Part shown: positions 4,316 to 11,035 of the stretch, piece by piece
How positions within the stretch are numbered: the stretch's first letter is position 1
Layout: the number at the start of each line of letters is the position of its first letter
From: Patescibacteria group bacterium
Lineage (GTDB): Bacteria > Patescibacteriota > WWE3 > UBA101185 > UBA10185
DNA: 64,000 nucleotides
Reading direction: 5' to 3'
Assembly (NCBI GenBank): GCA_049322215.1
Contig: JBMORU010000001.1
Span: 65,357-129,356, forward strand
The notes under the pieces: model-generated
The model's input: the letters and a program-made list of their open reading frames with translations, nothing else
What the model was told of the DNA's origin: nothing
The model's database searches: none
Translations under genes and position numbers: made by a program

Positions 4316-4428
4316 CCGGCGATGACCTATTTTCCCAGGTATTCTACCAAGTATCTTCGGCGCTGGTGGGCTTAACTTCTCTGTTCGGAATGGGAAGAGG
4401 TGGTACACCACCGCTAAGATCACCGGGA
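4316..4428 (-). rRNA. rrf: 5S ribosomal RNA
   Basis: Reverse complement reads ...CCCATTCCGAACAGAGAAGTTAAGCCCACCAGCGCCGAAGATACTTGGTAG..., the conserved 5S core. Ends are approximate (+/-5 nt). Confidence 0.85.
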
Positions 4429-4614
4429 TTATATACATAAATTTTTAAACTGCTAATTAGATTAGCTCATGCGCCTTTTCTCGTTCCAAGAAAGCAACCA
4501 AAAAAGGCGAAAAAGCCAACCTAATTAAAATTTGCATTACGTAAATAGCAAAAAGTCGAGTGCTTTTTACCAATGGTAAAAAGCCGTAGAAACTTTAACA
4601 CATAAACATTGTTT

Positions 4615-7600
4615 ATATGAAAGACGCATAACAATTAGTACTGCTTAGCTAAACACATTACTGTGCGTACACCTGCAGCCTATCAGCCTGGTCATCTCCC
4701 AGGAGTTATGTCCCCTCAAGGGGGAAGAGTTCTAATCTTGAGGTGGGCTTCGTGCTTAGATGCTTTCAGCACTTATCCCATCCGAACGTAGCTACCCAGC
4801 GGTGCTCCTGGCGGAACAACTGGCACACTAGAGGTTCGTCCATTCCGGTCCTCTCGTACTAGGAACAGATCCTCTCAGAACTCAAACGCTCGTTGTGGAA
4901 AGGGACCGAACTGTCTCACGACGTTCTGAACCCAACTAACGCGCCATTTTAATGGACGGACAGTCCAACCCTTGGGACCTGCTTCAGCCCCAGGATATGA
5001 CGAGTCGACATCGAGGTGCCAAACCTTGCCGCCGCTGTGGACGCTCGGGCAAGATCAGCCTGTTATCCCCGGGGTAACTTTTATCCGTTAAGTTCCGGGC
5101 CATCCATATGGCTCTCGGAAGATCACTAAGCCCTACTTTCGTACCTGCTCGACTTGTAGGTCTTGCAGTCAAGCTCCCATATACCTTTACGCTTATGGCG
5201 CCATTTCCATCGGCGCTAAGGGAACCTTTGGGCTCCCGCGTTACCTTTTAGCGGGAAACCGCCCCAGTTAAACTACCCACCAGACATTGTCCCCGGACCG
5301 GATTCACGGCCCATGGTTAGGTTCGTAATAATAAAAGAGAGGTGTTTCATTGACGCTAAGCCGAAGCATAGCTCCCTCCTACACTGCACAGTTATTATCG
5401 CTCACCAATGTCAAGCTGTAGTAAAGCTCCACGGGGTCTATCTGTCCAACAACGAGTAACCAGCATCTTCACTGGTACTTCAATTTCACCGAGCTCGTGA
5501 CTAAGAGAGTGCTCAAGTCGTTACGCCTTTCGTGCGGGTCGATAATTATTCGACAAGGGATTACGCTACCATAGAACAGTTATAGTTACTGCTGCCGTTC
5601 ACCCGAGCTTGAACCGAAAGCTCATTCAGGACAAGTCCTGAGATCACCCCCAGTCTTAACTTACGGGCACTGGGCAGGCGTCGGCCCCTATACATCCTCT
5701 TACGAGTTAAGCAGAGACCTGTGTTTTTGATAAACAGTCGCTTGAGCCGTTTCTGTGCCCCCCACCTTATCGCTAAAGTGGGGCATCCTTATTGCGAACT
5801 TACGGATGCAATTTGCCTAGTTCCTCGGTCACGATTCTCTCGTTCGCCTTGGTATTCTCTACCTACCTACCTGTGTCGGTTTGCGGTACGGATATCATAT
5901 AATCTCCCTAGAAGATTTTCTTGGAAGCTTAACGCAGTTGAATTTGCCTTTTGACGGGCATTCTCCCCAGCTTGGATAAACGTCTATGCGGATTTACCTA
6001 CATAAACTGCCTCGCTTTCGGAACTCCAATCCTTAAGAAGCTCAACTTATCAAACTCCGTCCCTCCATTGGTGATAACGATCATATGATAGTGCAGGAAT
6101 ATTAACCTGCTGTCCATCGACTACGCCTTTCGGCCTCACCTTAGGACCGACTAACCCTCCGTTGACTGCCATAGCGGAGGAAACCTTAGGTTTCCGGCGG
6201 GGTGGGTTCTCACCACCCTCTCGTTACTTATGCCAGCATTCTCACTTGATGACGCTCCAGCATGCCTCACGACACACCTTCAAAGCAGACATCAATGCTC
6301 CCCTACCACTAGTCCGCTAAAAGCGGACCAATCCACGGCTTCGGTTTTCTACTTGAGCCCCGTTAAATCGTCGGCGCGGAATCGTTTAACTAGTGAGCTA
6401 TTACGCTTTCTTTAAAGGATGGCTGCTTCTAAGCCAACCTCCTAGCTGTCTAAACAATTCCACTTCCTTACCCACTTAGTAGAAATTAGGGACCTTATCC
6501 GATGGTCTGGGCTGTTTCCCTCTTGCAACACGAACTTGCTCCGCATTGCTGACTCCCAAGCAAAACTATACGCATTCGGAGTTTGGTAAAGGTGGGTATC
6601 CGTGAGGACCCCAATCTTTTCCAGTATCTCTACCTCGTATAGTTTTAGCGCTTGAGGCTATACCTATATATATTTCGGGGAGAACCAGCTATTGCCAAGT
6701 TCGTTAAGCGTTTCACCTCTTACCACAAGTCATCCGAGCATTTTTCCGCATACACCGGTTCGGGCCTTCACCTGTATTTCTACAGGCTTCACCCTGCTCA
6801 TGGTAAGCTCACTTGGCTTCGGGTCTAATACTACCTACTCAATAGATACGCCCTATTAAGACTCGGTTTCCCTACGCCTACACCACTTAATGGCTTAAGC
6901 TCGCAGGTAGTATTAACTCGCTGGCTCATTCTTCAATAGGCACACCGTCACCCAACAAGTGGGCTCCGGCCGGTTGTTTGCATACGGTTTCAGGTTCTAT
7001 TTCACTCCCCTACAAGGGGTTCTTTTCACCTTTCCCTCACGGTACTAGTTCACTATCGGTGTCTTTGTGTATTTAGCCTTAGCTGATGGTCCAGCTGTAT
7101 TCACACAGGGTTTCACGTGCCCCATGCTACTCAGGACCAACCCAAGAAGGCATTAACGTTTCGAATACAGGGCTATTACCTTCTATGGCGCATCTTTCCA
7201 GATGGCTTCTTCTACGTAAATGCTTTGTAACTTCTTGCAACCCGAAGTTGCAGTGGGTTGTCCATACCCCTAATTTAATGATTAAATAGCAAATTCGGAA
7301 TTAATTCCAAGTTTGCGCTTTAACCTTAGGTTTGGGCTGTTTCCTTTTCGCTCGCCGCTACTCAGGAAATACTTGTTTTAGTTTTCTTTCCTCCAGCTAC
7401 TAAGATGTTTCAGTTCGCTGAGTACCCTCCACAACACCTATCATCCCACTCACAAGGAGTGAGGCTTTCAGTATTGAGTGACCTCGTATTTCTACGGGCC
7501 AGGTTTCCCCATTCGGAAATCCCCGATTGATAGCGCTTCTTACCAGCTCATCGAGGCTTAACGCAGGTTAACACGTCCTTCTTCGGCACAAAGACCCAGG

Positions 7601-7640
7601 GCATCCGCCGTATGCATTAGTATCTTTCATATGATATTTA
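4615..7640 (-). rRNA. rrl: 23S ribosomal RNA (about 3.0 kb, no large insertion or intron evident)
   Basis: Reverse complement contains the 23S 5' region (GGATGCCCTGG, AGTAGCGGCGAGCGAA) and the 3' region (GGGATAAGTGCTGAAAGCATCTAAGCACGAAGCCCACC...GTACTAATTG). Ends are approximate (+/-20 nt). Confidence 0.9.
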
Positions 7641-8886: not shown

Positions 8887-8889
8887 CTT

Positions 8890-9303
8890 TTATTTGTTGT
8901 TAATAAATTCTAAAACAGGAGAAGCTAGATCGTAATAGACAAAATTAGAAAATAAGTCAGGTTCTACCCATCTAAACTGTTCAACTTCAGAAGTATCAAT
9001 TAACAATGTATATGCTTCAGACACTAGAGTACAAGCAAAGTAATGCAATACTACTTTTTGTGAGGGAATAATAATTTCATGAATTTTGCGAACTACCGAA
9101 ACTTCATGTCCAGTTTCTTCGTATGCTTCACGTACTGCTGCCTCTTCATGAGTTTCATCATCATAAACTTTACCCCCAGGAAATGTCCAGGAGAGTCTAT
9201 TTTCTAACCCATGTAATGAGGGATCATAGCGTTTTACTAACAAAACGCTGCCTGTAGGGTTTTTAACTACAGATAAAGCTACTTGTGTTTGATTATCTTC
9301 CAT
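8890..9303 (-). CDS. NUDIX hydrolase
   Basis: 137 aa with a Nudix box GGKVYDDETHEEAAVREAYEETGHEV (GX5EX7REUXEEXGU). Confidence 0.8.
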   Translation of the reverse strand: MEDNQTQVALSVVKNPTGSVLLVKRYDPSLHGLENRLSWTFPGGKVYDDETHEEAAVREAYEETGHEVSVVRKIHEIIIPSQKVVLHYFACTLVSEAYTLLIDTSEVEQFRWVEPDLFSNFVYYDLASPVLEFINNK

Positions 9304-9570
9304 AAATTATCTTAATTTCTATATCGTTTACACTTAGCGCTTCAAGGAATAATAAGCAAAAAGAATGTCTCATTTAAGGGTTTAGGCTCACCCTTGAACC
9401 TGCTCATCCAACCCCGTGAGGGGGGTGGTGTACAACTACTACCTATGAGCTGCTCGATAGTAGCGTATGTTTTTTCTTTCATCGGTCTTTTTAAGACACA
9501 CTGTCAAACACAAAGGATTGACCATCTTAAAAAGGTTCCGCGATCAAAAACATAATATTCTTTCTCTTTA

Positions 9571-11035
9571 GAAAGGAGGTGATCCAGCCGCAGATTCCCC
9601 TACGGCTACCTTGTTACGACTTCATCCTCATCACTAATTCTACCTTGGGCCCACTACACGCAGGACTTAAGGTGGCCTTAGCTTTGCTGACGTGACGGGC
9701 GGTGTGTGCAAGACCCGAGAACGTATTCACCGCCGTATAGCTGACCGGCGATTACTAGCGATTCCAGCTTCATGGAGTCGAATTTCAGACTCCAATCCGA
9801 ACTGAGACGCGCTTTAAGGGATTAGCTCACTCTCGCGAGATTGCTGCCCGTTGTACGCGCCATTGTAGCATGCTTCTAGCCCAGGATATAAGGACAATAC
9901 CGACTTGACGTCGTCCCCACCTTCCTCCGTCTTGCGACGGCAGTTTCGCTAGAGTGATACAACTAACGATAGGGGTTGCGCTCGTTAACCCACTTAAGGG
10001 TACGCCTCACGGTACGAGCTGACGACAGCCATGCAATACCTGTGCAACACTCTCATAGAAGTCTAGCTTTCACTAGATTTGCAGTTGCATGTCAAACCCT
10101 GGTAAGGTTCTTCGGTTATCAGCGAATTAAAGAGCATGCTCCACCGCTTGTGCGGGTCCCCGCCAATTCCTTTGAGTTTTAGCCTTGCGACCGTACTCCC
10201 CAGGCGGCCTGCTTAACGCGTTAGCTTCGACACTCAGTTAAAAACCAAGTATCTAGCAGGCATAGTTTACGGCGTGGACTACACGGGTATCTAATCCGTT
10301 TCGCTACCCACGCTTTCGTCTCTCAGCGTCAGGAAAGCCCCAGTTAGCTGGCTACCCCCTTGGTGTTCCCCATGATATCAACGCATTTCACTGCTCCACC
10401 ATGAGTTCCGCTAACCCCTAGCTTCCTCTAGCCATACAGTATCAAGAGCACATCTACGGTTGAGCCGCAGTATTTTACCCCTGACTTATATAGCCGCCTA
10501 CAGAACTCTTTACGCCCAGTAATTCCGGATAATGCTTGCACCCCACGTATGACCGCTGCTGCTGGCACGTAGTTAGCCGGTGCTATTTTCAGAAGTTTAC
10601 AACCCGAAGGCCTTCATCCCTCACGCGGCGTCGCTGCGTCAGACTTTCGTCCATTGCGCAAGATTCCCGATTGCTGCCTCCCGTAGGAGTGAGGCCCGTG
10701 TCTAAGTGCCCCTCTGCCGGTACAGACGCTAATCCCCGGTACCCGTCATAGCCTTGGTGAGCTTTTACCTCACCAACAAGCTGATAGGCCGCAGGCTCAT
10801 CCCTAACCGATAAATCTTTAGTGTTGCCACCACATCGGGTATTAGACCAGATTTCTCCGGCTTATTCCCGAGTTAGGGGTAGATTCCTACGTGTTACTCA
10901 GCCGTTTGCCACTAAAAGTAACGAAGTCAATCTTAAAGCGAGCTTTAGTCATGACAAGTGTTACTTTCCGTTCGACTTGCATACCTTAGGCACGCCGCTA
11001 GCATTCATCCTGAACCAGGATCAAATTCTCAAAGA
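9571..11035 (-). rRNA. rrs: 16S ribosomal RNA
   Basis: Reverse complement starts GAGAATTTGATCCTGGTTCAGGATGAATGCTAGCGGCG and ends GGCTGGATCACCTCCTTTC (anti-SD). Internal conserved blocks include GTGCCAGCAGCGGCGGTCA... About 1465 nt. Ends are +/-5 nt. Confidence 0.9.

Follow-up and report, generated by a model that had tools for sequence, protein, structure and literature searches.

A split rRNA locus in candidate division WWE3 with predicted separate 16S and 23S-5S transcription units

Introduction

The canonical Escherichia coli-type ribosomal RNA (rRNA) operon has the order P1/P2-boxA-16S-tRNA-Ile-tRNA-Ala-23S-5S. How, then, are rRNAs made from a locus in which protein genes and a reversed tRNA lie between 16S and 23S? 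We studied such a locus, the only one for rRNA in a 64,000-nucleotide (nt) stretch of a Patescibacteria group genome (contig JBMORU010000001.1, positions 65,357 to 129,356; this whole stretch is termed the window, and coordinates are window positions). A canonical co-transcribed operon keeps to one strand and has a short spacer holding only tRNAs. Here, tRNA-Ile lies on the opposite strand, and a NUDIX hydrolase gene and a 128-amino-acid (aa) open reading frame (ORF) occupy the spacer of 1941 bp. We conclude that the locus is genuine, belongs to a tiny WWE3 (Patescibacteria) bacterium, and is typical of that lineage. Comparison with relatives points to a split layout ancestral to WWE3, which is likely read as four transcription units: 16S-NUDIX, tRNA-Ile, the 128-aa gene, and tRNA-Ala-23S-5S.

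Gene order and strands of the locus

RNA genes were placed with Rfam covariance models, and tRNAs also with ARAGORN. The matches for 16S, 23S, and 5S were all full-length.

4314-4427, minus strand: 5S rRNA (Rfam RF00001, 92.7 bits)
4615-7630, minus strand: 23S rRNA, intron-free (Rfam RF02541, 2578 bits)
7913-7989, minus strand: tRNA-Ala(TGC) (ARAGORN and the Rfam tRNA model)
8202-8588, minus strand: 128-aa ORF in a variable gene slot, with Shine-Dalgarno (SD) sequence AAGGAG at 8599-8594
8748-8824, plus strand: tRNA-Ile(GAT), CCA encoded (ARAGORN; Rfam, 75.2 bits)
8890-9303, minus strand: NUDIX hydrolase gene, 137 aa, MutT-like (Pfam PF00293, E value of 2e-20)
9572-11036, minus strand: 16S rRNA (Rfam RF00177, 1384 bits, model positions 1-1533)

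The rRNA positions and strands of an initial annotation, made from the letters of the window, were right to within a few bases, and its spacer of about 1.9 kb measures 1941 bp (9572 - 7630 - 1). Both ORFs that it had reported in the spacer are present on the rRNA strand, namely, the NUDIX gene and the 128-aa ORF of no known family, for which we also found no Pfam or NCBIfam family match. We checked whether these ORFs might fall inside rRNA sequence, and neither overlaps an rRNA as placed by Rfam. The two tRNAs lie on the strands originally described, with tRNA-Ile opposite to everything else in the locus. On the minus strand at tRNA-Ile, where a better fold might have been hidden, Rfam returned only sub-threshold matches to antisense-tRNA-derived families. 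An Rfam search at a permissive E value found no regulatory RNA of known type in the spacer.

By exact-protein look-up, two independent Logan assemblies (L001 and L002) were each found to carry both the NUDIX gene and the 128-aa ORF. L001 is unbroken and identical to the window (0 single-nucleotide polymorphisms [SNPs]) over the entire spacer, from the 16S 3' end on one side into 23S on the other. L002 spans the 16S 3' end to tRNA-Ala with 4 SNPs (2 noncoding and 2 synonymous); the single SNP in the 128-aa ORF is synonymous. L001 (SRR32167788) is chimeric: its nt 1-468 best match archaeal small-subunit rRNA, and the switch to WWE3 sequence occurs at the 16S 3' end, which is universally conserved. 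Despite this chimeric 16S part, L001 covers the unique spacer without a break. The organism is present in the samples of SRR32167788 and ERR15087771.

The split arrangement in WWE3 relatives

Scanning the genome collection with the neighbouring S1 protein yielded relatives 67-72% identical and labelled candidate division WWE3 or Patescibacteria, in which 23S-5S-S1 synteny is kept. Many of their contigs break inside rRNA genes. Three loci found among WWE3 genomes (L012, L015, and L018) share the order opposite-strand tRNA-Ile(GAT), divergent CofD/YvcK-family gene, tRNA-Ala, 23S, and 5S. No 16S was found beyond tRNA-Ile within about 1.4 kb in L015 and L018 or in the about 60 nt examined in L012. 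L003 carries the closest NUDIX homolog (47% identity) in the order NUDIX, antisense tRNA-Ile, DUF378 ORF, tRNA-Ala, and 23S. Thus, comparing spacer synteny among relatives, as the initial annotation had suggested, showed that the layout recurs: tRNA-Ile has the same relative orientation in all four loci, and the NUDIX gene is shared with L003. The slot between tRNA-Ile and tRNA-Ala varies, being filled by a CofD/YvcK-like gene, a DUF378 ORF, or the 128-aa orphan.

A matching order has been published in table form for WWE3 fosmid DIGA11YD11: 16S, putative NUDIX hydrolase, two hypothetical genes, tRNA-Ile, a 330-aa gene, tRNA-Ala, 23S, 5S, rpsA, and radA (Guermazi et al. 2008, Environ Microbiol 10:2111; PMC2702496, Table 4). 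Strands are absent from the table, and the authors make no remark on the layout. The window shows this WWE3-type order (16S-NUDIX-...-tRNA-Ile-protein gene-tRNA-Ala-23S-5S-rpsA), with tRNA-Ile antisense to tRNA-Ala-23S-5S and with leader ACGGAATGG and box AAGCTCTNNATT before tRNA-Ala. The rRNA-linked NUDIX gene appears confined to the window lineage, L003, and the fosmid because distant NUDIX homologs (P0004, P0005, P0006, P0008, P0011, P0012, and P0014) lie in ordinary protein-gene neighbourhoods with no rRNA loci.

Because the order recurs in L003, the WWE3 relatives, and the 2008 fosmid, these sequences indicate that the split layout is an ancestral character of the WWE3 clade and not an accident of one genome. 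The initial annotation had described a canonical operon interrupted in this genome, a view that we do not retain.

The relatives differ in other respects. In L012, the intact tRNA-Ala is preceded by partial copies of its 5' part (2819-2835 and 3053-3081), and tRNA-Ile by a 13-nt copy of its own 5' part (about 138-270); these look like insertion scars beside both tRNAs. The 23S of some WWE3 relatives is ~4.8 kb, with group I introns (Rfam RF00028; L015 2962-7793, L018 3000-7786, and L013 370-633). A conserved ~115-nt element, not in the window, directly follows 5S in L011 (2091-2260), L012 (6764-6930), and L016 (342-510). The direct repeat TGTTCACAATATTATATTT on either side of it in L011 suggests a small inserted element.

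A predicted second promoter, a conserved leader, and a stem for tRNA-Ala-23S-5S

Around tRNA-Ala-23S-5S, we found the following features.

8098-8126, minus strand: promoter-like site TTGACA-17-TAATTT with TG at -15, read by eye; the -35 and the spacing to the leader are common to L003, L012, L015, L018, and L025
8070-8091, minus strand: conserved leader ACGGAATGGGAATTTACCTTCT, in all six loci
8025-8036, minus strand: boxA-like box AAGCTCTTAATT upstream of tRNA-Ala; pattern AAGCTCTNNATT in L003, L012, L015, L018, and L025
7669-7794, minus strand: 5' strand of the 23S processing stem, forming a duplex with 4508-4613
4508-4613, minus strand: 3' strand of the 23S processing stem, forming a duplex with 7669-7794
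4192-4219, minus strand: terminator-like hairpin ATCGCC..GGCGAT followed by T8, after 5S and before a 135-aa ORF (-8.5 kcal/mol)

Before tRNA-Ala, all six loci (the window and the five relatives just listed) have a -35 of the TTGAC(A/T) type together with a -10. They also share the leader ACGGAATGG..TA.CTT, whose spacing is fixed, and the box AAGCTCTNNATT. This last pattern occurs 2 times in the 64-kb window versus 0.38 expected by chance. That promoter, leader, and box are conserved even where no 16S was seen beyond tRNA-Ile is the strongest argument, from sequence, that tRNA-Ala-23S-5S has its own transcript start.

The 23S gene also has a long processing stem of its own. The duplex between its flanks has an energy of -76.4 kcal/mol, compared to -43.4 +/- 4.0 kcal/mol for shuffled sequence (z = -8.2). 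Pairing the leader of 16S or 23S with the trailer of the other gene gave no complementarity beyond shuffled controls (z = -0.9 and +0.6).

An 18-nt direct repeat (8043-8060 and 8163-8180, 89% identical, GGGTTTAAAG on the minus strand) brackets the predicted promoter and leader of the 23S unit. One copy forms the 5' arm of a hairpin after the 128-aa ORF.

The 16S unit and the NUDIX gene

The 16S gene is preceded by a promoter-like site and a boxA-like box, and its processing stem takes in part of the spacer.

11146-11174, minus strand: promoter-like site of the 16S unit, TTGACT-17-TATCTT with TG upstream, predicted by consensus scan and reading
Ending at 11120, minus strand: second 16S promoter candidate, TTGCGG-16-TATAAT
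11104-11113, minus strand: boxA-like box TGCTCTTTGA in the 16S leader, putative and read by eye
11037-11066, minus strand: 5' strand of the 16S processing stem, immediately next to the 5' end of mature 16S and pairing with 9369-9340
9340-9369, minus strand: 3' strand of the 16S processing stem, 203-232 nt past the 16S 3' end and ending 37 nt before the NUDIX ATG
9377-9402, minus strand: hairpin CAGGTTCAAGGGTGAGCCTAAACCCT in the 16S trailer, without an Rfam match

The box resembles the E. coli boxA, TGCTCTTTAACAA. A single mismatch divides the 16S stem into 16 + 13 bp, of which 24 are Watson-Crick and 5 are G-U (29/30 paired; -35.5 kcal/mol). The stem was found only via a seed search over the whole spacer; when the 16S leader was searched globally for duplexes with the trailer's first 168 nt, the result did not exceed that for shuffled sequence.

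The NUDIX assignment is firm, with 73.4 bits against the Pfam PF00293 gathering cut-off of 21.1 and an intact Nudix box (GX5EX7REUXEEXGU) in the translation, GKVYDDETHEEAAVREAYEETGH. Its best solved relatives are MutT/8-oxo-GTPases. No substrate class emerged from NCBIfam, as all equivalog matches were below their cut-offs. The codon score is host-like (0.44; host ORF mean, 0.40). Since the 16S stem ends 37 nt before the NUDIX start and the consensus scan found no promoter between stem and ATG, the NUDIX gene is most likely, on this sequence evidence, the 3' tail of the 16S primary transcript and not an independent nested unit.

The 16S trailer contains two hairpins (9377-9440, minus strand) common to L003 (about 60-115), neither with an Rfam match. 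In the first, CAGGTTCAAGGGTGAGCCTAAACCCT in the window, conservation is seen though the NUDIX proteins are only 47% identical; the stem differs between window and L003, and the CUCAC loop is the same. The second is nearly identical in both (AGGGTGAGCC..AACCCT). Scanning Joint Genome Institute (JGI) metagenome contigs with the 16S-trailer motif GGTTN{1,2}AGGGTGAGCCNNAACCCT gave 7 matches, none with rRNA or tRNA; we rejected these as further 16S-NUDIX junctions and regard them as chance or unrelated.

Two other observations concern the 16S promoter region. A 17-nt complementarity (G-U allowed) between 11161-11177 and the coding sequence of the 128-aa ORF at 8544-8560 is probably chance in AT-rich DNA. 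Divergent from the 16S promoter lies the gene for a 783-aa protein (11267-13618, plus strand) with an M23 peptidase domain and BNR/Asp-box repeats.

A convergent tRNA-Ile and a two-way hairpin

The NUDIX gene and tRNA-Ile run toward each other, and both have candidate signals on their own strands.

8713-8721, plus strand: extended -10 element TGtTAATAT for tRNA-Ile, aligned with L003, L012, L015, and L018
8670-8699, plus strand: alternative tRNA-Ile promoter TTGTCA-18-CATACT, from the consensus scan
8862-8895, both strands: terminator-like hairpin 8871-8884; on the minus strand it is followed by T8 (8862-8869), on the plus strand by a T-rich tail (8885-8895)

Upstream of tRNA-Ile, L003, L012, L015, and L018 have TGNTA(G/A)AAT or TGtGATAAT aligning with the window element, such that an extended -10 precedes tRNA-Ile in all five loci carrying it.

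The hairpin at 8871-8884 sits between the convergent genes and was flagged as terminator-like on both strands. The initial annotation had called it strong. The hairpin and its T tract are there, but its strength is modest, with a 5-bp stem and folds of -9.2 and -9.7 kcal/mol, A/U extension included. In L002, a SNP at 8885 puts a G-C pair in place of a U.C mismatch, making the stem 6 bp long instead of 5.

We took a GC-containing hairpin directly followed by a T run as an intrinsic terminator. By this definition, 8884-8871, 4219-4200, and 3726-3676, each with T8, are predicted terminators. The region has 9 terminator-like sites versus 7.9 in shuffled sequence. Because the count is no higher than in shuffled sequence, it is their placement at gene ends that argues for terminators.

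Elsewhere in the window, ARAGORN and Rfam tRNA matches gave a tRNA-Ile with anticodon TAT (51740-51815, minus strand), with two anticodon-CAT tRNAs nearby (48170-48246 and 49614-49687, minus strand). A UAU-anticodon tRNA-Ile is unusual in bacteria, where AUA is mostly read by a lysidine-modified CAT tRNA.

Two orphan ORFs

Besides the 128-aa ORF, a 135-aa ORF lies beyond 5S, as had been described together with the terminator at 3676-3726.

8648-8676, minus strand: promoter-like site TTGACA-17-TACCAT of the 128-aa ORF, from the scan, back to back with the tRNA-Ile promoter region
8136-8178, minus strand: long hairpin (inverted repeat) and then ATTAATTTTATT, after the 128-aa ORF; possible terminator; the region folds at -23 kcal/mol
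3728-4135, minus strand: 135-aa ORF with SD sequence AAAGGAGAG; the feature including SD and terminator spans 3676-4152
3726-3676, minus strand: predicted strong terminator after the 135-aa ORF (-20.8 kcal/mol, T8)

Among 5.8 billion protein clusters, the two ORFs matched only themselves. Neither is present in the related loci, and they are unrelated to each other. A HMMER search for remote homologs of the 128-aa ORF among every representative protein gave 4 weak matches to eukaryotic-type repeat proteins (SHIPPO and Ig-like), which we set aside as likely spurious. The AlphaFold model of this ORF had a predicted local distance difference test (pLDDT) score of 44. The 30 long host ORFs on which the codon score was trained averaged 0.40 with a minimum of 0.18, and both orphans scored lower than any of them (0.08 for 128 aa and 0.12 for 135 aa); their GC content at third codon positions (GC3) was higher than in host ORFs. 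For both, the annotated frame was the best of six, and a perfect SD sequence, AAGGAGAG, stood at the right distance from the start codon; this hexamer occurs 31 times in 128 kb (both strands). Taken together, these sequence features suggest that both are probably real genes, fast-evolving or acquired, in variable slots.

The initial annotation had 5S followed by the 135-aa gene before the first terminator. This order does not stand. Since a hairpin with T8 (4219-4200) lies between 5S and the ORF, the 135-aa ORF is probably outside the rRNA unit and a separate unit, as far as its sequence context indicates.

Discussion

We infer, with good support, that 16S and 23S-5S are separate transcription units, because promoter, leader, and box are conserved before tRNA-Ala, the -10 of tRNA-Ile is conserved, each rRNA has its own stem, and a two-way hairpin lies between NUDIX and tRNA-Ile. 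The initial annotation had proposed separate units, and this part is supported by both sequence and comparison; its independent nested NUDIX mRNA is replaced by a probable 16S tail.

In the arrangement that we favour, a promoter and boxA-like box would drive 16S. The 30-bp stem brackets 16S, with its 3' strand about 200 nt downstream, and pre-16S would be released once the stem is cut, presumably by RNase III. The RNA beyond the cut would stay as NUDIX mRNA with a 5' untranslated region of about 37 nt and would end at hairpin 8871-8884 and its T8. tRNA-Ile(GAT) would be transcribed convergently from its own extended -10 and stop at the same hairpin, read from the other side. The 128-aa orphan gene, with its own promoter-like site and perfect SD sequence, would form a third unit in the slot that differs in each relative. 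Finally, the second rRNA promoter, conserved leader, and boxA-like box would drive tRNA-Ala-23S-5S, with 23S flanked by its own long processing stem and the transcript ending at the hairpin and T8 after 5S.

Several points weigh against this reading. The hairpin between NUDIX and tRNA-Ile is short (5 bp, about -9 kcal/mol), and in L003 just 6 nt, with no hairpin at all, separate the NUDIX stop from tRNA-Ile, so transcription may run on over the antisense tRNA in that locus. Termination could be lowered by an antitermination complex of the boxA type. The promoters were called from consensus matches only, and the scan gave 24 sites versus 15.7 expected. A weak TTGAAG-16-TATAGA before NUDIX, seen by eye only, may be a promoter of its own. 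For the two orphan ORFs, which lack homologs and are atypical in codon use, expression is putative.

Some of these points are shared by the best surviving alternative, one long pre-rRNA. Antiterminated polymerase from the 16S promoter would read through the hairpin, the antisense tRNA-Ile, and the 128-aa ORF into tRNA-Ala-23S-5S, and internal promoters would be minor or unused. All genes but tRNA-Ile are co-oriented, as this would require, and the -9 kcal/mol hairpin, its absence at the junction in L003, and the boxA-like box in the 16S leader fit as well. We nevertheless consider a single precursor unlikely. Promoter, leader, and boxA-like box before tRNA-Ala are kept in six loci, with no 16S in the examined flank beyond tRNA-Ile in L012, L015, and L018. 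The convergent tRNA-Ile promoter is conserved, the 16S and 23S stems are separate with null cross-pairing of leaders and trailers, and the analogous Borrelia locus gave no reverse transcription-PCR (RT-PCR) product across its junctions.

A recent, genome-specific origin, with mobile or foreign DNA inserted into a canonical 16S-Ile-Ala-23S-5S operon and inverting part of it, is very unlikely. The codon use and GC3 of the 128-aa and 135-aa orphans are what foreign DNA might bring, and tRNA-Ile and tRNA-Ala provide inverted repeats of 29-36 nt across which an inversion could occur. However, the NUDIX position is common to L003 (47%) and the 2008 fosmid, the tRNA-Ile orientation is common to L003 and three WWE3 genomes, and NUDIX codon use is host-like. 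ORF, Pfam, and repeat checks found no transposase, integrase, or terminal repeats in the spacer. Signs of recent exchange are limited to the contents of the slot between tRNA-Ile and tRNA-Ala.

That misassembly created the arrangement, through a chimeric join in conserved rRNA, can hardly be entertained: rRNA regions misassemble readily and L001 is itself chimeric in its 16S part, but L001 (16S 3' end into 23S) and L002 (16S 3' end to tRNA-Ala, 4 SNPs) are independent assemblies of the same unique spacer, a relative as divergent as L003 (NUDIX 47% identical) and the Sanger-sequenced WWE3 fosmid have the same order, and the pairing of the 16S leader with the spacer just upstream of NUDIX ties 16S to the spacer.

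With four units as the preferred reading, the locus is a compact natural case for rRNA biology, in which 16S and 23S-5S apparently have separate promoters and boxA-like leaders, a presumably essential tRNA would be transcribed head-on into the end of the 16S unit, and a protein gene appears to ride the 16S precursor. One could go further and suppose that in WWE3 the NUDIX gene is a conserved, functional passenger of the 16S transcript, its mRNA made by stem cleavage, such that output of a MutT/RppH-like enzyme for nucleotide cleaning or RNA 5' ends keeps step with rRNA synthesis, and that the adjacent slot between the back-to-back tRNA-Ile promoter and the 23S promoter is a gene-swap hot spot (CofD/YvcK-like, DUF378, or 128-aa orphan). 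We offer this tentatively and hold it to be rather improbable.

For annotators and users of 16S-internal transcribed spacer (ITS)-23S amplicons, the practical point is that WWE3/Patescibacteria, which lack a normal spacer, will be misjudged or missed by long-amplicon or operon profiling. Current concepts are unchanged, as both the Borrelia case and the unlinking of rRNA genes in reduced genomes were established before. Already known are the WWE3 gene order (since 2008), unlinked rRNA genes in Patescibacteria, and the three transcripts of Borrelia. Our sequence analysis adds two promoter/boxA-like leaders, two processing stems, a two-way terminator candidate, a conserved tRNA-Ile promoter, and a NUDIX gene probably on the 16S precursor.

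Comparison with known systems

Compared to the E. coli-type operon, the window has the same genes, overall order, boxA-like leader elements, and stems flanking 16S and 23S. It differs in its inverted tRNA-Ile, the two protein genes in the spacer, the terminator-like hairpin and second promoter with boxA-like leader inside the spacer, and the position of the 3' strand of the 16S stem, about 200 nt past the gene.

The WWE3 fosmid is closest, sharing the gene order from 16S to rpsA and the candidate division, as judged from the WWE3-labelled S1 relatives (67-72%). Its spacer is longer (about 4.6 kb), and NUDIX is followed by two hypothetical genes that the window lacks. The place of the 128-aa orphan is taken in the fosmid by the 330-aa gene, the size of which matches the CofD/YvcK-like gene of L012, L015, L018, and L025. 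After rpsA, radA follows in the fosmid and a 763-aa ORF in the window.

Unlinked rRNA genes have been defined by a 16S-23S distance of >1500 bp, with Patescibacteria/candidate phyla radiation (CPR) named as a rich clade (Brewer et al., bioRxiv 10.1101/705046; later ISME J). At 1941 bp, the window falls in this class. Most unlinked pairs in that survey are >6 kb apart, whereas 16S and 23S in the window are still co-oriented neighbours. The survey (10.1101/705046) does not describe spacer content, promoters, or processing stems.

The nearest experimental parallel is Borrelia burgdorferi, in which all genes of the rRNA region are co-oriented except tRNA-Ile, and RT-PCR gave three transcripts (16S-tRNA-Ala, tRNA-Ile alone, and 23S-5S) with no product across junctions (Bugrysheva et al. 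2011, BMC Microbiol 11:17; PMC3037291). There, too, a single 16S lies kilobases from 23S-5S, and the window shares the lone opposite-strand tRNA-Ile between them. In Borrelia, tRNA-Ala goes with 16S, whereas it goes with 23S in the window; Borrelia also has tandem 23S-5S pairs and no NUDIX gene after 16S. The Borrelia transcripts were shown by RT-PCR, and the units of the window rest on predicted promoters and terminators. Since the lineages are unrelated, the resemblance between Borrelia and WWE3 is convergent.

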